Shown: positions 16,270 to 33,172 of the stretch, piece after piece
Numbering within the stretch: position 1 is the stretch's first letter
Layout of the letters: each line of letters begins with the position of its first letter
IMG/VR virus record: IMGVR_UViG_2541047841_000011
Source of the DNA: a virus
Taxonomy: Duplodnaviria > Heunggongvirae > Uroviricota > Caudoviricetes
Direction: 5' to 3' (one strand)
Length of the DNA: 51,083 nucleotides
Notes under the pieces: generated by a model
Databases searched by the model: none
The model's input: the letters and a program-made list of their open reading frames with translations, nothing else
Told to the model about the DNA's origin: nothing
Made by a program: the position numbers and the translations under genes

Positions 16270-16314
16270 TCAACTCACGGCGGGCATCATGCCCGCCTGT
16301 AACGGAGAGAAAAA

Positions 16315-17711: not shown

Positions 17712-17911
17712 TGAAAGTGAAGGCACTGGAAGGCGACACCGTGGATTCGCTCTGTTTCCGGCACTACGGCACGACGCAGGGCGTCACCGAAAAGGTGCTG
17801 GATGCCAACCCCGGACTCTGTCAGCAGGTATTTCTGGACGCCGGGCAGGAAGTGGAGATGCCGGAGCCGGAGAAGAAGAAACGAGAAATGATTCAGTTGT
17901 GGGGGGAGTAG
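17711..17911 (+). CDS. X: Tail protein X (P2 gpX-like)
   Basis: 66 aa MKVKALEGDTVDSLCFRHYG...; TGATG overlap with L. Confidence 0.75.
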   Translation: MKVKALEGDTVDSLCFRHYGTTQGVTEKVLDANPGLCQQVFLDAGQEVEMPEPEKKKREMIQLWGE

Positions 17912-17913
17912 CA

Positions 17914-18237
17914 GTGAGCACCATTCAAACAGGGATCACAGAGCAGGTTATTGCATGGCTCTTTGACCACCTGCCAACGGTGTATGCAGTAGGCGCGGCG
18001 GTCAGCATTTCCGCGCTGATGAGTCTTTATGACGGACGAACACTGGTTCAGACCGTAACGGGATCGCTGGCGTGCGGCGTTCTTGCCATGGCTGTGGCCG
18101 GGTCGTTGCGCTTCTTCGGTTTTCCTGAAGATGCCGTGACGTTTATCGGCGCATCAATCGGTTTTATGGGGGCAGAGAAAGCACGCGATAAGGTTATTGC
18201 GGCCTTTAATCGCAGGGTGAAGGAGAAGGACGAATGA
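17914..18237 (+). CDS. Holin (three predicted TM helices)
   Basis: GTG start after gpX stop; hydrophobic segments LPTVYAVGAAVSISALMSLY, GSLACGVLAMAVAGSLRFFGF, AVTFIGASIGFMGA; basic C-terminus; precedes endolysin. Confidence 0.6.
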   Translation: MSTIQTGITEQVIAWLFDHLPTVYAVGAAVSISALMSLYDGRTLVQTVTGSLACGVLAMAVAGSLRFFGFPEDAVTFIGASIGFMGAEKARDKVIAAFNRRVKEKDE

Positions 18238-18626
18238 GCAACACATTTAAATTCAGCAGCCGGAGCGAAAAGAATTTGCAGGGCGTAAATCCTGATCTGG
18301 TGAAAGTGACCCGACGGGCACTGGAAATTTCGGAAGTGGATTTTGGTATCACCGAAGGGTTGCGCAGTCGTTACCGCCAGAAGCAACTTGTGGCCACAGG
18401 TAAGAGCCAGACCATGAACAGCCGCCACCTTACGGGACATGCCGTGGATGTTGTGGCTTATATCGGCAGCCAAGTGTCATGGGAATGGCCGCTGTACGAA
18501 AAAATCGCAGCCGCATTCAAACAGGCCAGCCGGGAACTGAATATTCCGGTGGAATGGGGCGGCGACTGGAAGACCCTGAAAGACGGACCGCATTTTCAGT
18601 TACCACACGGAGCCTATCCGGCATGA
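18234..18626 (+). CDS. Endolysin, peptidase M15-type (L-Ala-D-Glu / D-Ala-D-Ala peptidase fold)
   Basis: 130 aa; Zn-binding signature SRHLTGHAVDV and DGPHFQ; ATGA overlap with holin. Confidence 0.8.
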   Translation: MSNTFKFSSRSEKNLQGVNPDLVKVTRRALEISEVDFGITEGLRSRYRQKQLVATGKSQTMNSRHLTGHAVDVVAYIGSQVSWEWPLYEKIAAAFKQASRELNIPVEWGGDWKTLKDGPHFQLPHGAYPA

Positions 18627-19030
18627 AGCTCTGGCCAACGCTTGGCGTTGCTTTCCTTCTGATTGCCGGATGGGGAACATCCATGCGTCTGTCATGGTCG
18701 CTGGGCCGGGAGAACGCCAGAAACGAAGCGCAGGCCAGCACCCTGAAACGTACCGCCGACACCCTGAATATCATCAGCGCCGGGGTACAGGATATGCAGC
18801 AGGTGCTGGCGCAACTCCGCGTGGAAAATCAGCAACGCAATCAGGACGGAGAGGCAAGACGTGAACAGCTACGCAACGATATTGCAAAAGATGAATGCGC
18901 CCACGCTTTGCCTGACGCTCGTTTTACTGACAGGCTGCGCAGGCACGCAGAACGCGCTACGGCCAGCGCCGTCAGTCCGGCTTATACCGCAGACGCTGAC
19001 CATACCGGTAACGCCTCCCCCCTTCCCTGA
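18623..19030 (+). CDS. i-spanin (Rz/LysB-like)
   Basis: Internal ATG of ORF 18479..19030; N-terminal TM (MKLWPTLGVAFLLIAGWG) then coiled-coil-like periplasmic domain. Confidence 0.6.
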   Translation: MKLWPTLGVAFLLIAGWGTSMRLSWSLGRENARNEAQASTLKRTADTLNIISAGVQDMQQVLAQLRVENQQRNQDGEARREQLRNDIAKDECAHALPDARFTDRLRRHAERATASAVSPAYTADADHTGNASPLP

Positions 19031-19181
19031 CACTCCCACATGGGGAAATCTCGGTATATGGGGCGACCGCCTTCTGGATGCACTGGAAACCTGTAACGCG
19101 GATAAACGGGCCATTGAATTACTGGAACAGCGCAGGCTGCAACGACTGAACAACGAGGACAACAACCATGCTGAAAACTGA
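18891..19181 (+). CDS. o-spanin lipoprotein (Rz1/LysC-like), overlapped out of frame with i-spanin
   Basis: Lipobox LLTGC then proline-rich segment; starts inside the i-spanin gene and extends past it, as in P2 lysB/lysC. Confidence 0.55.
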   Translation: MNAPTLCLTLVLLTGCAGTQNALRPAPSVRLIPQTLTIPVTPPPFPDTPTWGNLGIWGDRLLDALETCNADKRAIELLEQRRLQRLNNEDNNHAEN

Positions 19182-19635
19182 TTCCCTGCGTGAAGCCATG
19201 ACCCGTTCATGCCGATGGTGTCAGGCCAACCCGGAAAAATTCACCATTTTCGTGGAGAGCGGCAACATTGAAACGACCGGAGAAACGCCCTCGTTTGTTT
19301 ACCGCTATCAGATGGTGATGTTTGTCATGGATTACGCCGGGGAGCTGGACGACCTCACGCTGCCGCTACTGGCGTGGTTATCCGAAAATCAGCCACAGTT
19401 GTTGCTCAATCCGGAGCGTAATCAGGACATCAAATTCTCCGCCGTTATCAATGACGATGACAGCGCCGATCTCCTGTTTACGCTCCCCCTGCGGGAACGC
19501 GTTCGCATTACGCGCAGCAGTCAGGGGACACCGCAGGCAGAGCACCTGCCGGAGCCAAAACCCCGTCTGCCATCTTCCGAAGGCGACTGGTCGCATATAT
19601 TCCAGGATGTGACGTGGGGTGAAAGCGATGGATAA
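19168..19635 (+). CDS. R: Tail completion protein (P2 gpR-like)
   Basis: 155 aa, N-terminus MLKTDSLREA; synteny. Confidence 0.8.
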   Translation: MLKTDSLREAMTRSCRWCQANPEKFTIFVESGNIETTGETPSFVYRYQMVMFVMDYAGELDDLTLPLLAWLSENQPQLLLNPERNQDIKFSAVINDDDSADLLFTLPLRERVRITRSSQGTPQAEHLPEPKPRLPSSEGDWSHIFQDVTWGESDG

Positions 19636-20263
19636 GGCATTCACCCGTGTGGATGAAACCTTTGAGGCCATCCGCGACAGCCTGAATCAGCAGGCCATCA
19701 ATAACATCGCCAGAAAGCTGGCACAGGATTTACGCCGCGCCCAGCAGGCGCGCATCCGGTCACAGAAAGCGCCGGACGGGACCGCATGGACACCACGCAG
19801 ACGCCGCGTAACCCGGATACAGGAGCGCATTCGCTTTATCTGGAATAACGAAGCACGCACGCTGAAAAACTGGCATCACGACACGGGGAAATACGGGCGA
19901 ACCATTACCGGGTGGGATGAGGATAAAAACAATATCCGCACGTTTTACCGGGATGACATCGACCGTTTTCTGGAAATACGCACCCGGCGCATCAACCAGG
20001 ACAGCACAAAGCGCGTCCCCATGTTCGTAAAACTGCGCACCGCCCGCTACCTGAAAGCCCGTGCAGATGCTTCCGGTGTGACGGTGGGTTACAGCGGCGT
20101 GGCCGCACGTATTGCACGCGTTCATCAGTTCGGTGAGCGCGATCAGGTTGCGCCGGGCATTTTCACCGATTACCCGGTACGTGAGCTGCTGGGTATCAGC
20201 CAGGCAGATGAGCGCCTGATTTATAACACGGTGCTGGGCCGGATTGCGGAGGCTGTACGGTGA
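19628..20263 (+). CDS. S: Tail completion / virion morphogenesis protein (P2 gpS-like)
   Basis: ATG at 19628 inside ORF 19619..20263; synteny. Confidence 0.78.
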   Translation: MDKAFTRVDETFEAIRDSLNQQAINNIARKLAQDLRRAQQARIRSQKAPDGTAWTPRRRRVTRIQERIRFIWNNEARTLKNWHHDTGKYGRTITGWDEDKNNIRTFYRDDIDRFLEIRTRRINQDSTKRVPMFVKLRTARYLKARADASGVTVGYSGVAARIARVHQFGERDQVAPGIFTDYPVRELLGISQADERLIYNTVLGRIAEAVR

Positions 20264-20841
20264 GCGCAGAACTCATGCGACTGCTGAGCAACATCATCCG
20301 TACCGGGATCATCTCTGAAGTTGATGAGGAATCCTGGTGCGTGCGCGTTCGCAGCGGCGAACTGGAAACAGGCTGGCTGCGCTGGAACACCACGCGCGCG
20401 GGAGCCTTCAATGTATGGCTGCCGCCATCACCAGGCGAACAGGTGGTAATTGCCTGCATTGGCGGCAACCCGGAAACCGCCATGATAATTGGCAGCCTGT
20501 GGAGTGATGCCAGTCCGGCCCCCGGCAAAAGCCTGAAAGAAATCGTGGTCAGCGCGCCGGATGGCGCGGTGTTCCGCTACGACGCGGAAGCAGGCGCACT
20601 GAGCGCCAGCGGCATGAAAACAGCCACCCTGCAGGCATCCGTCAGCGTGACACTGGACACGCCCGTCGTGGAATGCACAGACCTTCTGAGAACGGCGACG
20701 CTTGACGTCACAAAAGGAGGAAAGATGAGCGGCAATATCACGCACAGCGGCGGCAACTTCACCTCAAACGGCATTACCGTGCATACGCATAAACACGGTG
20801 GCGTGAAAGGCGGCAGCGATTCGACAGGAGGCCCGCAGTGA
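20260..20841 (+). CDS. V: Baseplate spike/hub protein (P2 gpV-like)
   Basis: 193 aa; C-terminal GNITHSGGNFTSNGITVHTHKHGG as in gpV; GTG start overlaps S stop. Confidence 0.9.
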   Translation: MSAELMRLLSNIIRTGIISEVDEESWCVRVRSGELETGWLRWNTTRAGAFNVWLPPSPGEQVVIACIGGNPETAMIIGSLWSDASPAPGKSLKEIVVSAPDGAVFRYDAEAGALSASGMKTATLQASVSVTLDTPVVECTDLLRTATLDVTKGGKMSGNITHSGGNFTSNGITVHTHKHGGVKGGSDSTGGPQ

Positions 20842-21188
20842 CAACCCGCTACACAGGAATGAATCCGGACGGGACGGGAAACCTGAACGATATGGAGCAC
20901 CTGAAACAGTCAGTCAGGGATATCCTGACCACCCCGCTGGCAAGCCGGGTTATGCGACGGGAATATGGCAGCCTTGTGCCTGATTTGATTGACGAACCCA
21001 TGAATAACACCACGCGTCTGCAATGCATGAGTGCTGCCGTGATTGCGCTGACACGATGGGAACCCCGCATTGCCCTGGATGCCATCGACGTTGTCTGGAA
21101 AGCGGGAGGCCGCGCCGGGGTGACGCTGTCGGGCACTGTCATGCAGACCATGCAGAATGTTGAATTAACCATCACGCTGAGGGAGTAA
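20838..21188 (+). CDS. W: Baseplate wedge protein (P2 gpW-like)
   Basis: 116 aa, MTTRYTGMN...RVMRREYGS as in gpW. Confidence 0.85.
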   Translation: MTTRYTGMNPDGTGNLNDMEHLKQSVRDILTTPLASRVMRREYGSLVPDLIDEPMNNTTRLQCMSAAVIALTRWEPRIALDAIDVVWKAGGRAGVTLSGTVMQTMQNVELTITLRE

Positions 21189-21191
21189 ATC

Positions 21192-22088
21192 ATGCCTGCC
21201 GTTGACCTTTCCCAGTTACCGGAACCCGCCATCATCGCGGAGCCTGACTTTGAGGCAATTCTGGCTGACACAAAGGCCATGATGATTGCGGCTTATCACG
21301 CCGAACAGCGTGAAGCCGTTTCCGCCGCGCTGGAGCTGGAATCGGAACCCCTGAACGTTATCGCCCAGACAACAGCGTTTCGTGAAATGCTGTTACGCCA
21401 GCGGGTCAATGAGGGGGCACGCGCCTGCATGTTAAGCCACAGCGCCGGGACAGACCTGGACAACCTCGCGGGCAATATGAACACAAAGCGCCTGACCATC
21501 ACTCCGGCAACGGATACCACCGACGCAGTGATGGAAAGTGACACCTCGCTGAGACTGCGGGCGCAGCGGGCGTACGATGGCCTGAGTGTTGCTGGCCCGT
21601 CAGGTGCATACGAGTATTTTGCCCGCAGCGCCAGCGGTCTGGTGCGTGATGCGCGGGCTATCAGTCCGTCTCCGGCAAATGTGACGGTTTCCATTCTGTC
21701 CACTGAAGGCGACGGCACAGCAACGGAGGCGTTGCTTAATACCGTTCGCGCCGTTCTGAATGCAGAGGACACCCGCCCGGTGGCCGACCGCCTGACCGTA
21801 CAGAGCGCCAGAATCGTGACATGGCGGCTGAATGCAAAACTGTACTTTTACCCCGGTCCGGAATCCGAACCTATTCTGGCTGCGGCGGAATCGTCGTTCA
21901 GGAAGTGGCTGGCTGAGCAGGGGCTTATCGGTCAGGACGTGGCGTTGTCCGCCATTGCTGCCGCACTGCATGTGCACGGTGTGCAACGCGTGGAGATAAT
22001 CGAACCCACACAGAATATGGCCATCAGCGACATACAGGCGGCGCGCTGTGAGTCATTCACCATCAGCGAAGGTGGGCGCAATGAGTAA
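21192..22088 (+). CDS. J: Baseplate assembly protein (P2 gpJ-like)
   Basis: 298 aa; GGGAG RBS; synteny. Confidence 0.88.
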   Translation: MPAVDLSQLPEPAIIAEPDFEAILADTKAMMIAAYHAEQREAVSAALELESEPLNVIAQTTAFREMLLRQRVNEGARACMLSHSAGTDLDNLAGNMNTKRLTITPATDTTDAVMESDTSLRLRAQRAYDGLSVAGPSGAYEYFARSASGLVRDARAISPSPANVTVSILSTEGDGTATEALLNTVRAVLNAEDTRPVADRLTVQSARIVTWRLNAKLYFYPGPESEPILAAAESSFRKWLAEQGLIGQDVALSAIAAALHVHGVQRVEIIEPTQNMAISDIQAARCESFTISEGGRNE

Positions 22089-22611
22089 TTCGTTGTTACC
22101 ACCATCAGCCAGCAATTTCATGCGTTGTGCCGAAGCCGTCGGAACACGCATTACAGACATTCCGGTAGACCTCAACACACTGTGGTCGCCGGATACCTGC
22201 CCGGTGCATCTGCTGCCCTATCTCGCCTGGGCATTTTCCGTTGACCGCTGGGATCGCAACTGGCCGGAAGAGACAAAGCGACAGGTTATTCGTGATGCAT
22301 GGCTGATACACCGACACAAAGGGACCATCAGCGCACTGCGCAGGGCCATTGAGCCGCTGGGATACCTCATTCGCGTGTCTGAGTGGTGGGAGTTCGGCGG
22401 AGAACCGGGAACATTTACCGTTGAAGTCGGCACACTGGACAGTGGCGTGACGGAGGAAATGTATCTGGAAATGGAGCGGTTGATTGCTGATGCCCGCCCG
22501 GTCAGCCGCCACATGACAGGGCTGAATATCATTCAGGAAATTCCGGGGGATATTTTCGCAGCGGCGGCAACTTATGACGGTGAAGTTATTACCATTTATC
22601 CGGACGATTAA
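22081..22611 (+). CDS. I: Baseplate protein (P2 gpI-like)
   Basis: ATG at 22081 inside ORF 22048..22611 gives 176 aa; overlaps J stop. Confidence 0.83.
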   Translation: MSNSLLPPSASNFMRCAEAVGTRITDIPVDLNTLWSPDTCPVHLLPYLAWAFSVDRWDRNWPEETKRQVIRDAWLIHRHKGTISALRRAIEPLGYLIRVSEWWEFGGEPGTFTVEVGTLDSGVTEEMYLEMERLIADARPVSRHMTGLNIIQEIPGDIFAAAATYDGEVITIYPDD

Positions 22612-22613
22612 GC

Positions 22614-24848
22614 ATGAGTACCACAACACGAAAATTTAAAACCGTTATCACCGATACAGGTGCAAAAAAATTAGCTCAGGCAGCCGCGCCAGATGGTAAG
22701 CCTGTCCGCCTGACTCATATGGCCGTGGGCGACGGTGGCGGCACGTTGCCCACACCAGACAGTAAGCAGACCCGTCTGGTGCATGAGGTGTGGCGACACA
22801 CTGTTAATCGCGTCATCCTGGACGCAACACATCAGAACCGCATTATTGCGGAGCTGGTTATACCTCCTGAAACGGGCGGATTCTGGATCCGGGAAATTGG
22901 TGTATTTGATGAGCACGGCGATTTAATCGCGGTGGGCAATACTGCCGAAAGTTACAAGCCAACCGTTGCCGAGGGGTCCGGACGTGCACAAACATTTCGC
23001 ACCATTCTGACCGTATCCAGCACTGCCAGCGTGGCGCTTACCGTGGATAACACCATGGTGATGGCCACAGTGGATTACGTGGATGACAAACTGAAAGAGC
23101 ATGAACAGTCACGACGTCACCCGGATGCCTCGCTGACCGCAAAAGGCTTTGTTCAACTCAGTAGCGCCACTAACAGCGATTCTGAAACGCTGGCCGCAAC
23201 GCCGAAAGCGGTTAAGGCCGCGTATGACCTGGCTAACGGAAAATATACCGCTCAGGACGCCACGACGGCACGAAAAGGGATAGTCCAGCTCAGCAGTGCA
23301 ACCAACAGCACGTCTGAAACGCAGGCTGCAACGCCGAAAGCAGTAAAGGCGGCATATGACCTTGCTAACGCAAAATATACCGCTCAGGACGCAACGACGG
23401 CACGAAAAGGGATAGTTCAGCTCAGTAGCGCCACTAACAGCCCGTCTGAAACGCTGGCTGCGACACCAAAAGCGGTTAAGGCGGTAATGGATGAAACGAA
23501 CAAGAAAGCGCCTTTAAACAGTCCTGCGCTGACCGGAACGCCAACAACGCCAACTGCGCGACAGGGAACGAATAATACCCAAATCGCAAGCACGGCTTTC
23601 GTTATGGCTGCGATTGCCGCCCTTGTAGATTCGTCACCTGACGCACTGAATACGCTGAACAAGTTAGCGGCGGCGCTGGGAAACGACCCGAATTTTGCGA
23701 CCACCATGACTAACGCGCTTGCGGGTAAGCAACCGAAAGATGCCACCCTGACGGCGCTGGCCGGGCTTGCTACTGCGGCAGACAGGTTTCCGTATTTTAC
23801 GGGGAATGATGTCGCCAGCCTGGCAACCCTGACAAAAGTCGGGCGGGATATTCTTGCGAAATCGACCGTTGCTGCCGTTATCGAATACCTCGGTTTACAG
23901 GAAACGGTAAATCAGGCTTCTGGCGCATTACAGAAAAACCAGAACGGCGCAGATATTCCGGGTAAAGATACCTTCACCAAAAACATTGGTGCCTGCCGCG
24001 CATATAGCGCATGGCTGAATATTGGTGGCGATAGTCAGGTCTGGACAACTGCGCAATTTATTTCGTGGCTGGAGAGTCAGGGGGCATTTAACCATCCTTA
24101 CTGGATGTGCAAAGGCTCATGGGCTTATGCAAATAATAAGGTCATTACAGATACAGGTTGCGGAAATATTTGTCTTGCAGGTGCTGTGGTGGAAGTTATT
24201 GGCACTCGCGGCGCAATGACCATACGCGTTACTACGCCGAGTACGTCCAGCGGCGGCGGAATTACTAACGCTCAATTCACCTATATTAATCATGGTGATG
24301 CTTATGCTCCTGGCTGGCGACGAGACTACAACACGAAAAACCAGCAGCCTGCATTTGCTTTAGGGCAAACAGGACGCAGGGTCGCAAATGATAAAGCTGT
24401 TGGCTGGAACTGGAATAGCGGTGTTTATGATGCAGATATCAGTGGTGCATCGACATTAATCCTCCACTTCAATATGAATGCGGGGAGTTGCCCTGCTGTA
24501 CAGTTCCGCGTGAATTACAGGAACGGCGGTATCTTTTATCGTTCAGCGCGTGATGGTTATGGCTTTGAAGCTAACTGGTCAGAGTTTTACACCACAACCC
24601 GCAAACCCTCTGCGGGGGATGTTGGTGCATATACGCAGGCAGAATGTAATTCAAGGTTTATTACAGGTATTCGCTTGGGCGGTCTGTCATCTGTTCAGAC
24701 ATGGAATGGTCCCGGCTGGTCTGACAGGTCAGGTTATGTCGTTACGGGTTCAGTTAACGGAAACCGTGATGAATTAATTGATACAACTCAGGCAAGGCCA
24801 GTTCAGTATTGCATTAATGGGACGTGGTATAACGCGGGGAGTATTTAA
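22614..24848 (+). CDS. H: Tail fibre protein H, variant 1 (constant N-terminus plus variable C-terminus Hv1)
   Basis: 744 aa; N-terminal part with 44-aa SSATNS...ATPKAVK repeats identical to the 842-aa mirror ORF up to ...[10 protein letters not shown]; C-terminus diverges after the 26-bp crossover site at 23878..23903. Confidence 0.9.
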   Translation: MSTTTRKFKTVITDTGAKKLAQAAAPDGKPVRLTHMAVGDGGGTLPTPDSKQTRLVHEVWRHTVNRVILDATHQNRIIAELVIPPETGGFWIREIGVFDEHGDLIAVGNTAESYKPTVAEGSGRAQTFRTILTVSSTASVALTVDNTMVMATVDYVDDKLKEHEQSRRHPDASLTAKGFVQLSSATNSDSETLAATPKAVKAAYDLANGKYTAQDATTARKGIVQLSSATNSTSETQAATPKAVKAAYDLANAKYTAQDATTARKGIVQLSSATNSPSETLAATPKAVKAVMDETNKKAPLNSPALTGTPTTPTARQGTNNTQIASTAFVMAAIAALVDSSPDALNTLNKLAAALGNDPNFATTMTNALAGKQPKDATLTALAGLATAADRFPYFTGNDVASLATLTKVGRDILAKSTVAAVIEYLGLQETVNQASGALQKNQNGADIPGKDTFTKNIGACRAYSAWLNIGGDSQVWTTAQFISWLESQGAFNHPYWMCKGSWAYANNKVITDTGCGNICLAGAVVEVIGTRGAMTIRVTTPSTSSGGGITNAQFTYINHGDAYAPGWRRDYNTKNQQPAFALGQTGRRVANDKAVGWNWNSGVYDADISGASTLILHFNMNAGSCPAVQFRVNYRNGGIFYRSARDGYGFEANWSEFYTTTRKPSAGDVGAYTQAECNSRFITGIRLGGLSSVQTWNGPGWSDRSGYVVTGSVNGNRDELIDTTQARPVQYCINGTWYNAGSI
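23141..23490 (+). repeat. 132-bp tandem repeat (2.6 units) inside tail fibre gene
   Basis: Units start at 23141, 23273, 23405; encode 44-aa fibre repeat [44 protein letters not shown]. Mirror 27594..27943. Confidence 0.85.
23878..23903. other. Left crossover site for a Gin/Hin/Cin/Pin-family serine invertase (gix-like)
   Basis: TTATCGAATACC-TC-GGTTTACAGGAA, a 12-2-12 imperfect palindrome matching the Din-family site as I recall it (Mu gix about TTATCCAAAACC-TC-GGTTTACAGGAA), at the constant/variable junction of the fibre gene. Confidence 0.75.
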
Positions 24849-24850
24849 CG

Positions 24851-25384
24851 ATGATGCACTTAAAAAACATTACTGCTGGCAACCCTAAAACAAAAGAGCA
24901 ATACCAGCTAACGAAACAATTTAACATCAAATGGCTTTATTCAGAGGATGGAAAAAACTGGTATGAGGAACAAAAGAATTTCCAGCCAGACACTTTGAAA
25001 ATGGTCTATGACCATAACGGCGTTATTATTTGTATTGAAAAGGATGTTTCAGCAATTAATCCGGAAGGCGCAAGCGTCGTTGAATTACCTGATATTACAG
25101 CAAATCGCCGTGCTGACATTTCGGGTAAATGGATGTTCAAAGATGGCGTAGTGGTAAAGCGAACTTATACCGAGGAAGAGCAGAGGCAGCAGGCGGAAAA
25201 TGAAAAGCAAAGCCTGCTACAGCTCGTCAGGGATAAAACCCAGCTATGGGACTCACAGCTACGGCTGGGCATCATTTCCGACGAGAATAAACAAAAATTA
25301 ACAGAGTGGATGCTCTTTGCGCAGAAAGTCGAATCTACAGACACTTCCAGCCTGCCAGTAACGTTTCCCGAACAACCAGAATGA
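24851..25384 (+). CDS. G: Tail fibre assembly protein, variant 1 (P2 gpG / Mu U-like)
   Basis: 177 aa, MMHLKNITAGNPKT...[14 protein letters not shown]; immediately follows Hv1. Confidence 0.85.
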   Translation: MMHLKNITAGNPKTKEQYQLTKQFNIKWLYSEDGKNWYEEQKNFQPDTLKMVYDHNGVIICIEKDVSAINPEGASVVELPDITANRRADISGKWMFKDGVVVKRTYTEEEQRQQAENEKQSLLQLVRDKTQLWDSQLRLGIISDENKQKLTEWMLFAQKVESTDTSSLPVTFPEQPE

Positions 25385-25387
25385 GAG

Positions 25388-25414
25388 AAGGCCTGATATC
25401 GGGCCTTAATTTTT
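25388..25414. terminator. Bidirectional hairpin between convergent tail-fibre assembly genes
   Basis: AAGGCC-TGATATC-GGGCCTT followed by AATTTTT; lies in the 28-bp gap between stops at 25384 and 25413. Confidence 0.5.
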
Positions 25415-25940
25415 ACTCAGGCTTTTGTGGCCATTCGGGCTTTGCCGTATCCACACGGCTGACCATAACACTGTAGCGTTCCCATGACTCCAGTCGTGCG
25501 CATTCCTCATCCGTCGCCATATTCAGCCTGACAGCGCGTTCCAGTGGCTGAATAACGCTTTCCGCTTCGGAAAGTAACGCGGCCTTTTGTGATTCTGCCT
25601 GTTGTTGCTGTTCATCTGCCGTATAAATCCGTTTAACCACAGCACCATCCTTAAACATCCATTTACCTGAGTCGTCAGCACGTCGGTTGGAGGTAATATC
25701 AGGAACCTCAACAACGCTAAAACCTTCAGGATTAAGCGTTGAAGCATCTCTGGTGATAGCGACAATAATATTATTTTCATCGTAAACAATCTTTATTGTG
25801 TCTGACTGAAAGTTCTTCACTTCCTCATACCAGTTTTTCCCGTCTTCAGTGTAAAGCCAGATGACTCCATGCTTCTTTGTTAACTCATACTGTTCCAGTG
25901 TTTTAGCGTTACCCGCTTTTATGTTCTTTAAGTGCATCAT
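25413..25940 (-). CDS. Tail fibre assembly protein, variant 2 (Mu U-prime-like)
   Basis: 175 aa, [14 protein letters not shown]...[14 protein letters not shown]; homologous to but distinct from variant 1. Confidence 0.85.
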
Positions 25941-25941
25941 A

Positions 25942-28470
25942 TTAAACGCTCGCTACATTATACCATGTGCCATTTATATACTTTTGAACGGGTCTGTAAT
26001 AAACACCCGCAATATTATCGGCGGAGTTGGAACCTGTATCCTGAACATTTATACCAGACAATACATGACCTGAAGGGCACTGGAAGTTCCATGTTTGCCA
26101 GTTGTTCACACCATAATATTGCTGTGAGCCAAGCCGAACATCTTTCACATATCTGGAATCAATGTTACCCCAGTTGCTTGGTTGTATCTGACCGTTTACA
26201 GCAAATGTCACCGAGTTATCTGTATTTCGCTGACTATAGAAATGCCAGCCTGAATCATCACCAAGCTCTGCAACAGTTGGTCTTGACGAATTTCCCCACA
26301 AGTTAAATGATGCATTACGGGCAGCGGTATTTGCACTTGAAAGTGTGAATAACTTACTTTCCCCAGCCTGAATACCCTTTAATGATATTGCTGAGCCATT
26401 TCTAAAGCGGAATACATGCACACCATTAGCATAAGCATCCAGCACCCCATCACCATTTTGTTTAAACCCAGTATCGTTATCTCCTAAAACTATTGAATTT
26501 CCCCCCAGGGCATTAGCCGTTCCAATCCCCAGATTTCCGCTAAAAATGGCATTAATACCGAATATTGAGTGAGAACAATAAAACCCTCGCCCATTGTTAA
26601 AATCCAGAATGGCTTGTGCGTTCGTGCTTTCTGTCGCGGGATTAGTTGCTCCCCACTTATATGTTGTTTGACCGACGGTATAATCCTGAGTTGGAACAAT
26701 AACCGTTAGCCCTTCTTCGGCAAAAACTCGCACAGGAAAAGCCCTGCCTTCAACGTAAAAAACGCTGCATACATCATCTTCTTTAAGGCTTGTTACAATG
26801 GAATGGATTGCGCGCTCATTAGTCTGATACGTCGAAAAATAACCTGCCGCATATGAACCACGATCAGTCCAGCCACCAGGCATTACCATTCCATTGAATT
26901 CGCAGTTATTCATTGCGTAATCACCACTGGCAGATGTGGTCGTTATAATCACTCTGGAAGCCAGCTCGCCAGTGCTGCCTGTGGAACGCCGGAAAATAAC
27001 TGGATACCACTTTCCACCAACTGCATTAGACGGCGCATTAAATGCGTACTGCCGCATTCCTTTTTTCTTATCCACCTCGCCTTTGCTGTAAACATTAATG
27101 TTACTCAGGAAGCGATCCTTATCAGGAATATCCGCGCCGTTCTGTTTTTTTTGTAATGCGCCAGAAGCCAGATTTACCGTTTCCTGCAAACCGAGGTATT
27201 CGATAACGGCAGCAACGGTCGATTTCGCAAGAATATCCCGCCCGACTTTTGTCAGGGTTGCCAGGCTGGCGACATCATTCCCCGTAAAATACGGAAACCT
27301 GTCTGCCGCAGTAGCAAGCCCGGCCAGCGCCGTCAGGGTGGCATCTTTCGGTTGCTTACCCGCAAGCGCGTTAGTCATGGTGGTCGCAAAATTCGGGTCG
27401 TTTCCCAGCGCCGCCGCTAACTTGTTCAGCGTATTCAGTGCGTCAGGTGACGAATCTACAAGGGCGGCAATCGCAGCCATAACGAAAGCCGTGCTTGCGA
27501 TTTGGGTATTATTCGTTCCCTGTCGCGCAGTTGGCGTTGTTGGCGTTCCGGTCAGCGCAGGACTGTTTAAAGGCGCTTTCTTGTTCGTTTCATCCATTAC
27601 CGCCTTAACCGCTTTTGGTGTCGCAGCCAGCGTTTCAGACGGGCTGTTAGTGGCGCTACTGAGCTGAACTATCCCTTTTCGTGCCGTCGTTGCGTCCTGA
27701 GCGGTATATTTTGCGTTAGCAAGGTCATATGCCGCCTTTACTGCTTTCGGCGTTGCAGCCTGCGTTTCAGACGTGCTGTTGGTTGCACTGCTGAGCTGGA
27801 CTATCCCTTTTCGTGCCGTCGTGGCGTCCTGAGCGGTATATTTTCCGTTAGCCAGGTCATACGCGGCCTTAACCGCTTTCGGCGTTGCGGCCAGCGTTTC
27901 AGAATCGCTGTTAGTGGCGCTACTGAGTTGAACAAAGCCTTTTGCGGTCAGCGAGGCATCCGGGTGACGTCGTGACTGTTCATGCTCTTTCAGTTTGTCA
28001 TCCACGTAATCCACTGTGGCCATCACCATGGTGTTATCCACGGTAAGCGCCACGCTGGCAGTGCTGGATACGGTCAGAATGGTGCGAAATGTTTGTGCAC
28101 GTCCGGACCCCTCGGCAACGGTTGGCTTGTAACTTTCGGCAGTATTGCCCACCGCGATTAAATCGCCGTGCTCATCAAATACACCAATTTCCCGGATCCA
28201 GAATCCGCCCGTTTCAGGAGGTATAACCAGCTCCGCAATAATGCGGTTCTGATGTGTTGCGTCCAGGATGACGCGATTAACAGTGTGTCGCCACACCTCA
28301 TGCACCAGACGGGTCTGCTTACTGTCTGGTGTGGGCAACGTGCCGCCACCGTCGCCCACGGCCATATGAGTCAGGCGGACAGGCTTACCATCTGGCGCGG
28401 CTGCCTGAGCTAATTTTTTTGCACCTGTATCGGTGATAACGGTTTTAAATTTTCGTGTTGTGGTACTCAT
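25942..28470 (-). CDS. Tail fibre protein H, variant 2 (constant N-terminus plus variable C-terminus Hv2, P2 H-like tip)
   Basis: 842 aa; first roughly 430 aa identical to variant 1; C-terminus ends ...[13 protein letters not shown]...RYVKDVRLG...[13 protein letters not shown], which resembles my recollection of the P2 gpH end. Confidence 0.9.
27181..27206. other. Right crossover site for a Din-family serine invertase (gix-like)
   Basis: TTCCTGCAAACC-GA-GGTATTCGATAA, reverse complement of the left site except one base (27187). Confidence 0.75.
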
Positions 28471-28472
28471 GC

Positions 28473-29003
28473 TTAATCGTCCGGATAAATGGTAATAACT
28501 TCACCGTCATAAGTTGCCGCCGCTGCGAAAATATCCCCCGGAATTTCCTGAATGATATTCAGCCCTGTCATGTGGCGGCTGACCGGGCGGGCATCAGCAA
28601 TCAACCGCTCCATTTCCAGATACATTTCCTCCGTCACGCCACTGTCCAGTGTGCCGACTTCAACGGTAAATGTTCCCGGTTCTCCGCCGAACTCCCACCA
28701 CTCAGACACGCGAATGAGGTATCCCAGCGGCTCAATGGCCCTGCGCAGTGCGCTGATGGTCCCTTTGTGTCGGTGTATCAGCCATGCATCACGAATAACC
28801 TGTCGCTTTGTCTCTTCCGGCCAGTTGCGATCCCAGCGGTCAACGGAAAATGCCCAGGCGAGATAGGGCAGCAGATGCACCGGGCAGGTATCCGGCGACC
28901 ACAGTGTGTTGAGGTCTACCGGAATGTCTGTAATGCGTGTTCCGACGGCTTCGGCACAACGCATGAAATTGCTGGCTGATGGTGGTAACAACGAATTACT
29001 CAT
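28473..29003 (-). CDS. I: Baseplate protein (gpI-like), mirror copy
   Basis: Exact inverted copy of 22081..22611. Confidence 0.83.
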   Translation of the reverse strand: MSNSLLPPSASNFMRCAEAVGTRITDIPVDLNTLWSPDTCPVHLLPYLAWAFSVDRWDRNWPEETKRQVIRDAWLIHRHKGTISALRRAIEPLGYLIRVSEWWEFGGEPGTFTVEVGTLDSGVTEEMYLEMERLIADARPVSRHMTGLNIIQEIPGDIFAAAATYDGEVITIYPDD

Positions 29004-29892
29004 TGCGCCCACCTTCGCTGATGGTGAATGACTCACAGCGCGCCGCCTGTATGTCGCTGATGGCCATATTCTGTGTGGGTTCGATTATCTCCACGCGTTG
29101 CACACCGTGCACATGCAGTGCGGCAGCAATGGCGGACAACGCCACGTCCTGACCGATAAGCCCCTGCTCAGCCAGCCACTTCCTGAACGACGATTCCGCC
29201 GCAGCCAGAATAGGTTCGGATTCCGGACCGGGGTAAAAGTACAGTTTTGCATTCAGCCGCCATGTCACGATTCTGGCGCTCTGTACGGTCAGGCGGTCGG
29301 CCACCGGGCGGGTGTCCTCTGCATTCAGAACGGCGCGAACGGTATTAAGCAACGCCTCCGTTGCTGTGCCGTCGCCTTCAGTGGACAGAATGGAAACCGT
29401 CACATTTGCCGGAGACGGACTGATAGCCCGCGCATCACGCACCAGACCGCTGGCGCTGCGGGCAAAATACTCGTATGCACCTGACGGGCCAGCAACACTC
29501 AGGCCATCGTACGCCCGCTGCGCCCGCAGTCTCAGCGAGGTGTCACTTTCCATCACTGCGTCGGTGGTATCCGTTGCCGGAGTGATGGTCAGGCGCTTTG
29601 TGTTCATATTGCCCGCGAGGTTGTCCAGGTCTGTCCCGGCGCTGTGGCTTAACATGCAGGCGCGTGCCCCCTCATTGACCCGCTGGCGTAACAGCATTTC
29701 ACGAAACGCTGTTGTCTGGGCGATAACGTTCAGGGGTTCCGATTCCAGCTCCAGCGCGGCGGAAACGGCTTCACGCTGTTCGGCGTGATAAGCCGCAATC
29801 ATCATGGCCTTTGTGTCAGCCAGAATTGCCTCAAAGTCAGGCTCCGCGATGATGGCGGGTTCCGGTAACTGGGAAAGGTCAACGGCAGGCAT
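28996..29892 (-). CDS. J: Baseplate assembly protein (gpJ-like), mirror copy
   Basis: Exact inverted copy of 21192..22088. Confidence 0.88.
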   Translation of the reverse strand: MPAVDLSQLPEPAIIAEPDFEAILADTKAMMIAAYHAEQREAVSAALELESEPLNVIAQTTAFREMLLRQRVNEGARACMLSHSAGTDLDNLAGNMNTKRLTITPATDTTDAVMESDTSLRLRAQRAYDGLSVAGPSGAYEYFARSASGLVRDARAISPSPANVTVSILSTEGDGTATEALLNTVRAVLNAEDTRPVADRLTVQSARIVTWRLNAKLYFYPGPESEPILAAAESSFRKWLAEQGLIGQDVALSAIAAALHVHGVQRVEIIEPTQNMAISDIQAARCESFTISEGGRNE

Positions 29893-29895
29893 GAT

Positions 29896-30246
29896 TTACT
29901 CCCTCAGCGTGATGGTTAATTCAACATTCTGCATGGTCTGCATGACAGTGCCCGACAGCGTCACCCCGGCGCGGCCTCCCGCTTTCCAGACAACGTCGAT
30001 GGCATCCAGGGCAATGCGGGGTTCCCATCGTGTCAGCGCAATCACGGCAGCACTCATGCATTGCAGACGCGTGGTGTTATTCATGGGTTCGTCAATCAAA
30101 TCAGGCACAAGGCTGCCATATTCCCGTCGCATAACCCGGCTTGCCAGCGGGGTGGTCAGGATATCCCTGACTGACTGTTTCAGGTGCTCCATATCGTTCA
30201 GGTTTCCCGTCCCGTCCGGATTCATTCCTGTGTAGCGGGTTGTCAC
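29896..30246 (-). CDS. W: Baseplate wedge protein (gpW-like), mirror copy
   Basis: Exact inverted copy of 20838..21188. Confidence 0.85.
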   Translation of the reverse strand: MTTRYTGMNPDGTGNLNDMEHLKQSVRDILTTPLASRVMRREYGSLVPDLIDEPMNNTTRLQCMSAAVIALTRWEPRIALDAIDVVWKAGGRAGVTLSGTVMQTMQNVELTITLRE

Positions 30247-30824
30247 TGCGGGCCTCCTGTCGAATCGCTGCCGCCTTTCACGCCACCGTGTTTATGCGTA
30301 TGCACGGTAATGCCGTTTGAGGTGAAGTTGCCGCCGCTGTGCGTGATATTGCCGCTCATCTTTCCTCCTTTTGTGACGTCAAGCGTCGCCGTTCTCAGAA
30401 GGTCTGTGCATTCCACGACGGGCGTGTCCAGTGTCACGCTGACGGATGCCTGCAGGGTGGCTGTTTTCATGCCGCTGGCGCTCAGTGCGCCTGCTTCCGC
30501 GTCGTAGCGGAACACCGCGCCATCCGGCGCGCTGACCACGATTTCTTTCAGGCTTTTGCCGGGGGCCGGACTGGCATCACTCCACAGGCTGCCAATTATC
30601 ATGGCGGTTTCCGGGTTGCCGCCAATGCAGGCAATTACCACCTGTTCGCCTGGTGATGGCGGCAGCCATACATTGAAGGCTCCCGCGCGCGTGGTGTTCC
30701 AGCGCAGCCAGCCTGTTTCCAGTTCGCCGCTGCGAACGCGCACGCACCAGGATTCCTCATCAACTTCAGAGATGATCCCGGTACGGATGATGTTGCTCAG
30801 CAGTCGCATGAGTTCTGCGCTCAC
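30243..30824 (-). CDS. V: Baseplate spike protein (gpV-like), mirror copy
   Basis: Exact inverted copy of 20260..20841. Confidence 0.9.
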   Translation of the reverse strand: MSAELMRLLSNIIRTGIISEVDEESWCVRVRSGELETGWLRWNTTRAGAFNVWLPPSPGEQVVIACIGGNPETAMIIGSLWSDASPAPGKSLKEIVVSAPDGAVFRYDAEAGALSASGMKTATLQASVSVTLDTPVVECTDLLRTATLDVTKGGKMSGNITHSGGNFTSNGITVHTHKHGGVKGGSDSTGGPQ

Positions 30825-31456
30825 CGTACAGCCTCCGCAATCCGGCCCAGCACCGTGTTATAAATCAGGCGCTCATCTGCCTGGCTGATACCCAGCAGCT
30901 CACGTACCGGGTAATCGGTGAAAATGCCCGGCGCAACCTGATCGCGCTCACCGAACTGATGAACGCGTGCAATACGTGCGGCCACGCCGCTGTAACCCAC
31001 CGTCACACCGGAAGCATCTGCACGGGCTTTCAGGTAGCGGGCGGTGCGCAGTTTTACGAACATGGGGACGCGCTTTGTGCTGTCCTGGTTGATGCGCCGG
31101 GTGCGTATTTCCAGAAAACGGTCGATGTCATCCCGGTAAAACGTGCGGATATTGTTTTTATCCTCATCCCACCCGGTAATGGTTCGCCCGTATTTCCCCG
31201 TGTCGTGATGCCAGTTTTTCAGCGTGCGTGCTTCGTTATTCCAGATAAAGCGAATGCGCTCCTGTATCCGGGTTACGCGGCGTCTGCGTGGTGTCCATGC
31301 GGTCCCGTCCGGCGCTTTCTGTGACCGGATGCGCGCCTGCTGGGCGCGGCGTAAATCCTGTGCCAGCTTTCTGGCGATGTTATTGATGGCCTGCTGATTC
31401 AGGCTGTCGCGGATGGCCTCAAAGGTTTCATCCACACGGGTGAATGCCTTATCCAT
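30821..31456 (-). CDS. S: Tail completion protein (gpS-like), mirror copy
   Basis: Exact inverted copy of 19628..20263. Confidence 0.78.
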   Translation of the reverse strand: MDKAFTRVDETFEAIRDSLNQQAINNIARKLAQDLRRAQQARIRSQKAPDGTAWTPRRRRVTRIQERIRFIWNNEARTLKNWHHDTGKYGRTITGWDEDKNNIRTFYRDDIDRFLEIRTRRINQDSTKRVPMFVKLRTARYLKARADASGVTVGYSGVAARIARVHQFGERDQVAPGIFTDYPVRELLGISQADERLIYNTVLGRIAEAVR

Positions 31457-31916
31457 CGCTTTCACCCCACGTCACATCCTGGAATATATGCGACCAGTCG
31501 CCTTCGGAAGATGGCAGACGGGGTTTTGGCTCCGGCAGGTGCTCTGCCTGCGGTGTCCCCTGACTGCTGCGCGTAATGCGAACGCGTTCCCGCAGGGGGA
31601 GCGTAAACAGGAGATCGGCGCTGTCATCGTCATTGATAACGGCGGAGAATTTGATGTCCTGATTACGCTCCGGATTGAGCAACAACTGTGGCTGATTTTC
31701 GGATAACCACGCCAGTAGCGGCAGCGTGAGGTCGTCCAGCTCCCCGGCGTAATCCATGACAAACATCACCATCTGATAGCGGTAAACAAACGAGGGCGTT
31801 TCTCCGGTCGTTTCAATGTTGCCGCTCTCCACGAAAATGGTGAATTTTTCCGGGTTGGCCTGACACCATCGGCATGAACGGGTCATGGCTTCACGCAGGG
31901 AATCAGTTTTCAGCAT
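31449..31916 (-). CDS. R: Tail completion protein (gpR-like), mirror copy
   Basis: Exact inverted copy of 19168..19635. Confidence 0.8.
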   Translation of the reverse strand: MLKTDSLREAMTRSCRWCQANPEKFTIFVESGNIETTGETPSFVYRYQMVMFVMDYAGELDDLTLPLLAWLSENQPQLLLNPERNQDIKFSAVINDDDSADLLFTLPLRERVRITRSSQGTPQAEHLPEPKPRLPSSEGDWSHIFQDVTWGESDG

Positions 31917-32193
31917 GGTTGTTGTCCTCGTTGTTCAGTCGTTGCAGCCTGCGCTGTTCCAGTAATTCAATGGCCCGTTTATCCGCGTTACAGGTTTCCA
32001 GTGCATCCAGAAGGCGGTCGCCCCATATACCGAGATTTCCCCATGTGGGAGTGTCAGGGAAGGGGGGAGGCGTTACCGGTATGGTCAGCGTCTGCGGTAT
32101 AAGCCGGACTGACGGCGCTGGCCGTAGCGCGTTCTGCGTGCCTGCGCAGCCTGTCAGTAAAACGAGCGTCAGGCAAAGCGTGGGCGCATTCAT
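31903..32193 (-). CDS. o-spanin lipoprotein, mirror copy
   Basis: Exact inverted copy of 18891..19181. Confidence 0.55.
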   Translation of the reverse strand: MNAPTLCLTLVLLTGCAGTQNALRPAPSVRLIPQTLTIPVTPPPFPDTPTWGNLGIWGDRLLDALETCNADKRAIELLEQRRLQRLNNEDNNHAEN

Positions 32194-32461
32194 CTTTTGC
32201 AATATCGTTGCGTAGCTGTTCACGTCTTGCCTCTCCGTCCTGATTGCGTTGCTGATTTTCCACGCGGAGTTGCGCCAGCACCTGCTGCATATCCTGTACC
32301 CCGGCGCTGATGATATTCAGGGTGTCGGCGGTACGTTTCAGGGTGCTGGCCTGCGCTTCGTTTCTGGCGTTCTCCCGGCCCAGCGACCATGACAGACGCA
32401 TGGATGTTCCCCATCCGGCAATCAGAAGGAAAGCAACGCCAAGCGTTGGCCAGAGCTTCAT
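32054..32461 (-). CDS. i-spanin, mirror copy
   Basis: Exact inverted copy of 18623..19030. Confidence 0.6.
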   Translation of the reverse strand: MKLWPTLGVAFLLIAGWGTSMRLSWSLGRENARNEAQASTLKRTADTLNIISAGVQDMQQVLAQLRVENQQRNQDGEARREQLRNDIAKDECAHALPDARFTDRLRRHAERATASAVSPAYTADADHTGNASPLP

Positions 32462-32850
32462 GCCGGATAGGCTCCGTGTGGTAACTGAAAATGCGGTCCG
32501 TCTTTCAGGGTCTTCCAGTCGCCGCCCCATTCCACCGGAATATTCAGTTCCCGGCTGGCCTGTTTGAATGCGGCTGCGATTTTTTCGTACAGCGGCCATT
32601 CCCATGACACTTGGCTGCCGATATAAGCCACAACATCCACGGCATGTCCCGTAAGGTGGCGGCTGTTCATGGTCTGGCTCTTACCTGTGGCCACAAGTTG
32701 CTTCTGGCGGTAACGACTGCGCAACCCTTCGGTGATACCAAAATCCACTTCCGAAATTTCCAGTGCCCGTCGGGTCACTTTCACCAGATCAGGATTTACG
32801 CCCTGCAAATTCTTTTCGCTCCGGCTGCTGAATTTAAATGTGTTGCTCAT
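32458..32850 (-). CDS. Endolysin (peptidase M15-type), mirror copy
   Basis: Exact inverted copy of 18234..18626. Confidence 0.8.
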   Translation of the reverse strand: MSNTFKFSSRSEKNLQGVNPDLVKVTRRALEISEVDFGITEGLRSRYRQKQLVATGKSQTMNSRHLTGHAVDVVAYIGSQVSWEWPLYEKIAAAFKQASRELNIPVEWGGDWKTLKDGPHFQLPHGAYPA

Positions 32851-33170
32851 TCGTCCTTCTCCTTCACCCTGCGATTAAAGGCCGCAATAACCTTATCGCG
32901 TGCTTTCTCTGCCCCCATAAAACCGATTGATGCGCCGATAAACGTCACGGCATCTTCAGGAAAACCGAAGAAGCGCAACGACCCGGCCACAGCCATGGCA
33001 AGAACGCCGCACGCCAGCGATCCCGTTACGGTCTGAACCAGTGTTCGTCCGTCATAAAGACTCATCAGCGCGGAAATGCTGACCGCCGCGCCTACTGCAT
33101 ACACCGTTGGCAGGTGGTCAAAGAGCCATGCAATAACCTGCTCTGTGATCCCTGTTTGAATGGTGCTCAC
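32847..33170 (-). CDS. Holin, mirror copy
   Basis: Exact inverted copy of 17914..18237. Confidence 0.6.
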   Translation of the reverse strand: MSTIQTGITEQVIAWLFDHLPTVYAVGAAVSISALMSLYDGRTLVQTVTGSLACGVLAMAVAGSLRFFGFPEDAVTFIGASIGFMGAEKARDKVIAAFNRRVKEKDE

Positions 33171-33172
33171 TG

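Follow-up and report, generated by a model that had tools for sequence, protein, structure and literature searches.

The invertible tail-fibre cassette

The DNA analysed here, referred to as the window, is the whole 51,083-nt stretch of the IMG/VR record IMGVR_UViG_2541047841_000011 (Caudoviricetes). Its central part holds a tail-fibre gene with two alternative ends. The constant N-terminal part of the fibre gene H, Sc (22614..23890, plus strand, about 425 codons), has Pfam matches to a tail-collar N-terminal domain and to three 132-nt Phage_fiber_2 repeats (PF12571, PF03406), the repeats lying in tandem at 23123-23518. It is followed on the same strand by Sv, the first alternative C-terminus (23891..24848, about 319 aa), which has about 92% DNA identity to Mu S' (the G(-) form), and by a 177-aa tail-fibre assembly chaperone for Sv (24851..25384; PF02413 Caudo_TAP, E = 2.7e-36), the counterpart of Mu U'. 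On the minus strand lie a 175-aa chaperone for the second fibre end (25413..25940; PF02413, E = 1.2e-36), the counterpart of Mu U, and that end itself, Sv' (25942..27193, about 417 aa). The two chaperone genes have about 70% inverted similarity to each other.

Two fibre ORFs result, one at 22614..24848 (744 aa) and one at 25942..28470 on the minus strand (842 aa). They are identical over residues 1-433 and divergent thereafter. The first ~32 codons, common to Sv and Sv', are encoded by an inner inverted repeat (23891..23987, partner 27097..27193) that is imperfect, with 15 mismatches in 97 nt. Two in-frame fusion ORFs together with two mirror-arranged Caudo_TAP chaperone genes are the arrangement of the phage subgroup of such switches, represented by Mu G, P1 C and e14 P.

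The segment of about 3.3 kb at 23891..27193 is bounded by the central dinucleotides of two 26-bp sequences. The sequence at the Sc/Sv junction (23878..23903, plus strand) reads TTATCGAATACC-TC-GGTTTACAGGAA and is the left site in what we call orientation A. That at the Sc/Sv' junction (27181..27206) reads TTATCGAATACC-TC-GGTTTGCAGGAA on the minus strand and is the inverse of the first with one mismatch (A/G at 23897). Both are 12-2-12 imperfect dyads, inverted relative to each other and with identical central dinucleotides, as is typical of Din-family sites. When the 26-mer was searched with up to three mismatches, exactly two matches were found within the window compared with zero expected from shuffles. 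The sequences agree with published sites and their consensus (PMC4134206 Table 3) and with Mu gixR. They are therefore supported as crossover sites of the Din/Gin family, with an invertible tail-fibre cassette resembling Mu G between them, as the initial annotation had proposed. Its placement of the sites at the junction between constant and variable fibre parts also holds, as the site encodes roughly residues 422-430, at the edge of the region that the fusion ORFs share. A scan of the window for extra or cryptic sites with AAACCNNGGTTT at up to one mismatch, a loose pattern no rarer than chance, returned the two known positions only.

The window is a palindrome

Positions 1..23896 are the reverse complement of 27188..51083 with zero mismatches, and the paired arms extend to 1..23987 and 27097..51083 when the imperfect inner part is included. 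The centre of the palindrome is the centre of the window, and divergence starts at 23897, inside the inner half-site. The inverted repeat thus spans the whole window, not 26 bp.

The left arm (1..23896, plus strand) is the genuine left part of a P2-like prophage, and is 100.0% identical over its full length to the prophages of E. coli NR1430 and AH21F008. The int stop codon has its last base at position 1 of the window. The early genes come next, then Q, P, O, N, M and L, then the genes for lysis and the baseplate, and finally the constant part of H. Judged by gene set and gene order, as taken from the annotation of the 100%-identical native prophage and from the Pfam families of neighbouring genes, the element is a P88-like P2-type prophage (Xuanwuvirus, Peduoviridae) of E. 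coli. When the cargo genes were screened with PADLOC, the one match, Csx27-like, was weak.

In native copies the prophage is about 37 kb long. Gene I and H(Sc) are followed by the left site, Sv, the U-type chaperone, U', Sv' and the right site, and then by a gin-like invertase, the genes gpU, T, E, FII and FI on the opposite strand, D and ogr. We considered whether the inverted FI-U tail block beside the AH21F008 invertase was a strain-specific second rearrangement and rejected this, as the block is common to P88, 503458 and all relatives.

The right arm of the window (27188..51083, minus strand) has none of the native genes beyond the right site. It is an exact reverse-complement copy of 1..23896, again with zero mismatches, and most likely an artefactual duplication standing in for the true right flank. 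The genes replaced are those for the invertase, gpU, tape measure, E/E', tube and sheath, with D and ogr. No part of the window matches bases 10598-16597 of the native copy L001, where the invertase and tail genes lie. The report in the initial annotation that the window holds no invertase is confirmed by a tblastn search with the native Gin-like protein (best E = 1.3). The invertase is apparently absent because the contig folds back at the invertible segment.

The palindrome also alters the reading of the right-hand crossover site. Because the window is palindromic, the outer half of that site is the same Sc DNA reversed and no independent site. The sequence at 27181..27206 is the left site as seen in the flipped orientation B and not the native right site, whose outer half in native genomes is TTATCTAAAACC. 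Of the near-perfect inverse pair described initially, the single mismatch stands, but the outer half on the right is mirrored Sc.

Native copies carry an invertase beside the cassette

The prophage of AH21F008 matches window positions 16614..27210 at 99.95% and then runs into a gene for a 199-aa recombinase (Resolvase + HTH_7, PF00239 + PF02796, E = 6e-50). The protein is 81% identical to Mu Gin and matches the Gin structures 4M6F (E = 8e-100) and 3UJ3 (E = 4e-99). Where measured, the gene starts 54 bp beyond the outer site, so the enzyme is indeed encoded beyond the window, beside the true right junction, where the initial annotation had suggested looking for it. NR1430 carries the same prophage with an intact 199-aa invertase and with the cassette flipped relative to AH21F008. 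Sv' is a promoterless fragment facing the invertase in AH21F008 and is fused to Sc in NR1430. A flip of the cassette likewise distinguishes 95JB1 from 95NR1 (same location, Adelaide). Opposite orientations in near-identical genomes are as expected of Din-family inversion. In a census of junctions, Sc/Sv was found in 126 genomes and Sc/Sv' in 22.

A Gin orthologue adjoins the cassette in the complete genomes AH21F008, NR1430, 95JB1 and 95NR1, in one metagenome contig and in phages P88 and 503458. Long public contigs that encode the exact fibre proteins also have a Resolvase gene beside the cassette. The sole exception to an undivided gene among the native copies examined is L013 (GCA_964043755.1), in which it is split by an IS4-family insertion. 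This distribution does not support the idea of a switch that lacks an invertase of its own in cis. The initial annotation had named the lack of a flipped orientation and of an invertase as grounds for abandoning the switch; near-identical genomes contain both orientations and the invertase.

Besides showing that the invertase is encoded in cis in the native layout, these genomes delimit the point of exchange. Their Sc/Sv junction reads TTATCGAATACC-TC-GGTTTACAGGAA, and the junction of the invertase side with Sv' reads TTATCTAAAACC-TC-GGTTTGCAGGAA. In the other orientation, the Sc/Sv' junction reads TTATC[A/G]AATACC-TC-GGTTTGCAGGAA and the junction of the invertase side with Sv reads TTATCTAAAACC-TC-GGTTTACAGGAA. 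The half-site markers recombine, and the exchange is confined to 23888..23896 (CC-TC-GGTTT), an interval that includes the central dinucleotide. The central TC/GA is common to the native sites of L001 and L002. The junctions of the window are Sc/Sv plus Sc/Sv'. The first is identical to the junction in AH21F008 and to the published 5' site of EC958 Phi4, and the second has the same form as the Sc/Sv' junction of NR1430.

The first ~250 nt of the native invertase gene have about 98% nucleotide identity to Mu gin, and the Mu enhancer sequence is presumably retained there; from the window it is missing together with the gene. A crude search for Fis motifs at the 5' end of native gin, too unspecific to place the enhancer, returned the same candidate 15-mers as in Mu.

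It could be argued that the source prophage has no working adjoining invertase and that another Din-family invertase of the host acts on the cassette in trans, for example one from another P2-like or Mu-like prophage or e14 pin. We regard this as very unlikely. A precedent exists in EC958 Phi4, where the invertase is truncated and inversion is credited to a trans enzyme (PMC4134206), and the split gene of L013 could create the same situation. The true right flank of the source prophage lies outside the window, which is uninformative on that flank because a mirror copy of the left flank replaces it. However, the left arm is 100.0% identical to the prophage of NR1430, whose invertase is intact, and all long contigs with identical fibre proteins other than L013 carry the invertase.

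Origin of the fold-back

We conclude, with a probability of about 0.9, that the window is a chimeric fold-back contig around an active Gin-type invertible tail-fibre cassette of a P88-like E. coli prophage. The invertase would exchange strands at the central TC/GA of both 26-bp sites, probably assisted, by analogy with Mu, by host Fis and an enhancer within the 5' end of the invertase gene. The 3.3-kb flip would join the constant fibre N-terminus to Sv or to Sv', each with its own chaperone, and the exchange of fibres would switch the host range. In a culture or sample with both orientations, the adjacencies Sc to Sv and Sv' to Sc (reverse) would be present on different molecules. An assembler then most likely took a path through the inversion bubble from Sc into Sv and on through Sv' to the reverse complement of Sc. 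Such a path would give a 51-kb palindrome and lose the invertase-bearing flank.

The Sc/Sv and Sc/Sv' junctions together cannot occur on one molecule of a single-copy prophage. Sc on both sides of the cassette was found in 0 of 5,426 complete E. coli genomes, and no match in the same search joins the last 90 nt of the query with its first 1260. The draft contigs L021, L022 and L014 break at the branch nucleotide instead; L021 ends in ...AAACCGAGGT, the last base common to both possible outer half-sites. The exact 52-nt Sc/Sv' junction has no match in IMG/VR or in the GTDB representative genomes, and its single metagenome match (L007) has the normal layout and an invertase. Exact-protein look-ups with both fusion fibres revealed no second fold-back: every contig either had the normal layout or stopped at the site.

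A palindrome that exists as a real molecule is highly improbable. It would be either a true inverted duplication of the left half or a head-to-head dimer, formed if the left site of one prophage copy recombined intermolecularly with the right site of a second copy. On paper, the latter reaction yields A-G-A' plus B'-G-B, and the fold-back point is not random but lies at the crossover sites. If it were true, a Gin-type invertase would have escaped its usual intramolecular, inversion-only selectivity in vivo. Gin-type invertases strongly favour intramolecular inversion owing to the topological filter imposed by Fis and the enhancer, and an intermolecular product runs against this bias. The arrangement is seen in no complete E. 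coli genome, and it is implausible, on topological grounds, that a chromosome carries an inverted duplication of this kind. Genes for the tail sheath, tube and tape measure would be missing from the molecule, which at 51 kb would exceed the P2-type genome of roughly 33-37 kb. Both ends of the window lie at the int stop codon, as expected of an integrated prophage call, and zero mismatches over 23.9 kb are expected if the same DNA was used twice.

That the 26-bp sequences are conserved fibre-gene coding sequence with no role in recombination is refuted to the point of negligible probability, although they lie inside coding sequence and the adjoining 97 nt show some conservation between Sv and Sv'. 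A precise flip distinguishes near-identical prophages, and its exchange maps to 9 nt that contain the central dinucleotide. The second native site has an outer half that lies in the invertase leader, outside any fibre gene, and differs from the Mu sequence at one base. The inner half-site TTCCTGTAAACC is the same as in Mu gixR, and the sites match published crossover sites (PMC4134206).

The case is chiefly of practical value. An actively inverting cassette can lead an assembler to output a perfect 51-kb palindrome, which could pass for a large phage genome bounded by inverted terminal repeats. In it, 24 kb of genes are present twice and the invertase gene, the one gene that explains the structure, is concealed. 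Scans for missing partner genes should therefore first check a contig for fold-back symmetry. Conversely, when a contig folds back about a pair of crossover sites, this points indirectly to the presence of both orientations in the sample that was sequenced.

Comparison with known switches

The switch itself is already known. It is a textbook host-range switch of the Gin/gix type in a common E. coli P2-like prophage, and its site sequence is published. Tail-fibre switching in EC958 Phi4 (and Phi1) was described by Forde et al. 2014 (PMC4134206), who found both orientations within one culture and warned of artefactual duplications in phage regions arising from contigs of alternative orientation. 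EC958 Phi4 is also a P2-like prophage with a segment of ~3.1 kb and mirror-image fibre C-termini and chaperones. Its 26-bp 5' crossover site (TTATCGAATACCTC GGTTTACAGGAA) is identical to that of the window, and its invertase-side outer half-site is TTATCTAAAACC, as in native copies of the window prophage (PMC4134206). The two differ in that the EC958 Phi4 invertase is truncated and a trans enzyme is invoked, whereas AH21F008 and NR1430 have intact invertases of 199 aa, and in that the inner half of the Phi4 3' site, GGTTTACGAGAA, is two bases off (PMC4134206).

The Mu G segment, with Gin, gix sites and the sis enhancer, is built in the same way, Sc / Sv U / U' Sv' / invertase. The Sv, U-type and U' genes have about 92% DNA identity to Mu S', U' and U. 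In the native invertase, 118 of the first 120 residues are identical to those of Gin, and the stretch from the native right site through the leader into the 5' region of gin is about 95% identical to Mu gixR-gin. In contrast, Mu is a transposable phage and the switch here resides in a P2-like myovirus, the constant fibre resembles P2 H and has Phage_fiber_2 repeats, Sv' is for the most part unrelated to Mu S, and the Sc-side outer half-site is TTATCGAATACC.

Phages P88 and 503458 share the order H - chaperone - chaperone' - H' fragment - DNA invertase - gpU/T/E/FII/FI (opposite strand), and where their cassettes match that of the window, DNA identity is about 92-93%. They carry other alleles, with fibre genes of different lengths, and were deposited as normal, non-palindromic genomes. 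The window resembles fold-back assembly artefacts in being a palindromic contig, with the invertible segment as its loop. Unlike a sequencing-adapter hairpin artefact, it turns around exactly at a biological crossover site, and each of its junctions is genuine.

Crossover sites and symmetry of the window

The initial annotation had described two inverted crossover sites of a serine-invertase switch at the constant/variable junction of the tail-fibre gene. These sites are real. The 26-mer TTATCGAATACC-TC-GGTTTACAGGAA (23878..23903) and its inverse at 27181..27206, which differs from it by one base (A versus G at 23897), were the only two matches in the window when up to three mismatches were allowed, compared with none in 100 shuffles. 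Each lies in a fibre fusion ORF, one of 744 aa (22614..24848, plus strand) and one of 842 aa (25942..28470, minus strand). Residues 1-433 of the two ORFs are identical, after which they are unrelated except for a short C-terminal motif. The crossover site, which codes for about residues 422-430, is located at the constant/variable boundary, as had been proposed. The intervening segment carries two Caudo_TAP chaperone genes that mirror each other (24851..25384, plus strand; 25413..25940, minus strand).

The inverted repeat spans the whole window, not 26 bp. Arms 1..23987 and 27097..51083 are complementary, and base-by-base comparison of 1..23896 with the reverse complement of 27188..51083 gave 0 mismatches. 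Mismatches between the arms begin at 23897, six bases inward of the central dinucleotide, identity falls off across the following ~90 nt, and past 23988 it is random. The symmetry axis, 25542, is the exact midpoint of the window. Because the whole window is palindromic, what looks like a "right flank" is the switch's left flank in reverse, and the right-hand "site" takes its outer half from the same DNA of the constant fibre N-terminus (Sc, gene H) and is not independent.

Both window ends (1..3 and 51081..51083) coincide exactly with the last base of the integrase stop codon. A 20-nt direct repeat, AAAATCCTTGTTGATGAAAA, probably the att core, lies ~180 bp beyond base 1 (mirror 51083) and brackets the native 37-kb prophage at 10007-10026 and 47214-47233 of an annotated native locus (L003). 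The window thus resembles a provirus call cut at gene boundaries from a larger fold-back contig.

The native prophage carries an invertase beside the cassette

The complete E. coli chromosome AH21F008 (orientation A) matches window 16614..27210 at 99.95% and diverges from it 4 bp past the right site. Its right site is TTCCTGCAAACC-GA-GGTTTTAGATAA, the outer half of which reads TTATCTAAAACC in the other direction. A serine invertase adjoins this true right junction: a 199-aa gene starts 54 bp past the site, and its product contains Resolvase (E = 6e-50) and HTH_7 domains. The protein is 81% identical to Mu Gin, with 118 of 120 N-terminal residues identical, and matches the Gin crystal-structure chains 4M6F (E = 8e-100) and 3UJ3 (4e-99). 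It is followed on the opposite strand by the gpU, tape-measure, E, tube and sheath genes, and then by D and ogr. The invertase and tail genes (10598-16597 of the AH21F008 locus) have no match anywhere in the window, against which the best tblastn hit of the native invertase is only E = 1.3.

The E. coli genome NR1430 (orientation B) has this prophage too and matches window 1..23896 at 100.0% over the full length. Its cassette is opposite to that of AH21F008, such that the 842-aa fusion is intact and the invertase is faced by a fragment of Sv, one of the two alternative C-termini (Sv and Sv'). The 199-aa Resolvase and HTH_7 gene adjoins the cassette in every long contig among the matches listed, although in the GCA_964043755.1 copy (L013) it is split. 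The initial annotation was thus right that the window holds no invertase ORF and that the enzyme is encoded beyond it, but "no invertase in cis" fails as a statement of biology, because all but one of the native copies examined, AH21F008 among them, carry the gene beside the cassette. Its absence is a consequence of the fold-back contig.

The split gene in GCA_964043755.1 is interrupted by an IS4-family transposase of 442 aa (L013 15035..16684), leaving a 100-aa remnant. This prophage copy would be locked, or would need an invertase in trans.

Exchange point and activity of the switch

We wrote each junction as outer half, central dinucleotide and inner half. In AH21F008 the Sc-Sv junction is TTATCGAATACC-TC-GGTTTACAGGAA and that between the invertase side and Sv' is TTATCTAAAACC-TC-GGTTTGCAGGAA. 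In NR1430 the Sc-Sv' junction is TTATCAAATACC-TC-GGTTTGCAGGAA and the invertase side joins Sv as TTATCTAAAACC-TC-GGTTTACAGGAA. The marker bases, T or A in the outer half (four bases 5' of TC) and A or G in the inner half (six past TC), reassort between the two genomes, which places the exchange within 23888..23896, central dinucleotide included. Such an interval would fit a serine invertase, as expected. The assignment to the Din/Gin family was correct.

The window holds the Sc-type junction of both orientations, Sc-Sv as TTATCGAATACC-TC-GGTTTACAGGAA and Sc-Sv' as TTATCGAATACC-TC-GGTTTGCAGGAA. Both cannot lie on one molecule of a prophage with a single Sc copy. Among 5,426 complete E. coli genomes searched, not one has Sc at both ends of the cassette; the 8 full-length matches all end at query position 4597 (window 27210), and the flipped match begins at query position 1261.

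The switch is demonstrably active in nature. Flipped cassettes are seen between AH21F008 and NR1430 and again between 95JB1 and 95NR1, both from Adelaide. The latter two share the prophage, and the proteins of its recombinase and flanking genes have the same accessions in both. Among complete genomes, 126 have the Sc-Sv junction and 22 have Sc-Sv'. Metagenome contig ERZ507784 NODE_169 has the exact Sc-Sv' junction with the invertase on the far side, and exact-sequence look-ups placed both fibres (842 and 744 aa) in hundreds of assemblies.

Relation to known switches

The 5' site of prophage Phi4 of EC958, ccgccgTTATCGAATACCTC GGTTTACAGGAA, is identical to window 23878..23903, and the outer half of its 3' site, ccgccaTTATCTAAAACCTC GGTTTACGAGAA, is identical to the native invertase-side half-site of the present prophage (Forde et al. 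2014, PMC4134206, Table 3). The two prophages also share the mirror-image fibre/chaperone architecture; in Phi4 the invertase is truncated, and inversion in trans was noted (PMC4134206). Goldberg et al. 2014 (PMC4272514) found the two orientations side by side in P2-like EPEC prophages. The switch type and site are already known from the literature, and the value of the case is its quality-control lesson.

The cassette is a mosaic related to the Mu G segment. Its Sv and its two chaperone genes share ~92% identity with Mu S', U' and U, and in the native prophage the stretch from the right site through the leader into the first ~250 nt of the invertase gene shares ~95% with Mu gixR-gin. The mosaic pattern is visible when window 23878..26004 is compared with Mu 32910..35037; most of Sv' (25942..~27100) is without a Mu counterpart, its matches being to P88 and Yersinia phage vB_YpM_39. 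In Mu, the enhancer (sis) is located within the 5' portion of gin. For Hin, ~100 bp separate hixL from the proximal Fis site (PMC3798978). Judged from its sequence identity, the native element would most likely keep a Fis-dependent enhancer; a Fis-motif scan did not discriminate.

Origin of the fold-back contig

In a mixed-orientation population the assembly graph would have edges from Sc to Sv, from Sc to Sv' (reverse complement), from Sv' to the invertase side and from Sv (reverse complement) to the invertase side. An assembler could then follow a path from Sc through Sv and Sv' to Sc (reverse complement), with every adjacency genuine and the source molecules different. We infer that the artefact arose by such a walk. 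Forde et al. 2014 warned of artefactual duplications of phage regions from alternative-orientation contigs (PMC4134206). The Sc-specific and Sv'-specific markers are 10 nt apart, so the Sc-Sv' junction of the window could hardly have been assembled without reads that hold it; the contig itself suggests that the sample held both orientations.

Three draft contigs break here instead. One (L021) ends at 10584 with ...TTCCTGCAAACCGAGGT, the last base shared by the continuations GGTATTCGATAA (Sc) and GGTTTTAGATAA (invertase side), and the others stop slightly inside the shared inner repeat (L022 at 10563, L014 at 14563). These ends at the crossover site suggest that mixed orientation is common within single isolate cultures. 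The only uncertainty left concerns the history of this contig, together with a slight chance that the source strain itself has a damaged invertase, like that of GCA_964043755.1 or EC958 Phi4.

Other features of the prophage lineage

The layout H - chaperone - chaperone' - H' - invertase - inverted tail block is shared by phages P88 and 503458 (Xuanwuvirus). The FI-FII-E-T-U tail block directly follows the invertase on the strand opposite to H (11274..16597 of the AH21F008 locus; P88, 503458). D and ogr are in the P2 orientation, and the tail block is inverted relative to P2, with one inversion end adjoining the invertase. Because all relatives seen have this inversion, it is a trait of the lineage, not a rearrangement in one strain. 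Gene D is annotated as 266 aa in AH21F008 and 369 aa in some relatives, which could be another start call or a frameshift. At the native right end, outside the window, the stretch from ogr to the right attachment repeat (L003 10174..11807) encodes a Hok/Gef toxin, a zinc-ribbon protein and a protein annotated as TagO-like, type VI secretion-associated.

The constant fibre part contains three tandem 132-nt repeats (23123..23518, mirror 27600..27995; 100/79/67% identity), each coding for one 44-aa Phage_fiber_2 unit. Fibres in relatives are 700, 744, 798 and 842 aa long, differences that possibly reflect changes in repeat number.

Two cargo genes on the minus strand (9377..10219 and 10259..10756; mirrors 40865..41707 and 40328..40825) occupy the usual P2 variable hotspot, which separates the portal gene from the replication/partition genes. 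One encodes a DUF4760 protein of 165 aa, the other a 280-aa protein with only a weak PADLOC match to Csx27 (E = 1e-5). The prophage also encodes a ParM-type segregation protein and a small partition protein, named from the native annotation (8015..8974, plus strand), and an unusually long replication endonuclease of 940 aa (5116..7938, plus strand). Together these are a hint that this P2-like lineage has plasmid-like maintenance functions.
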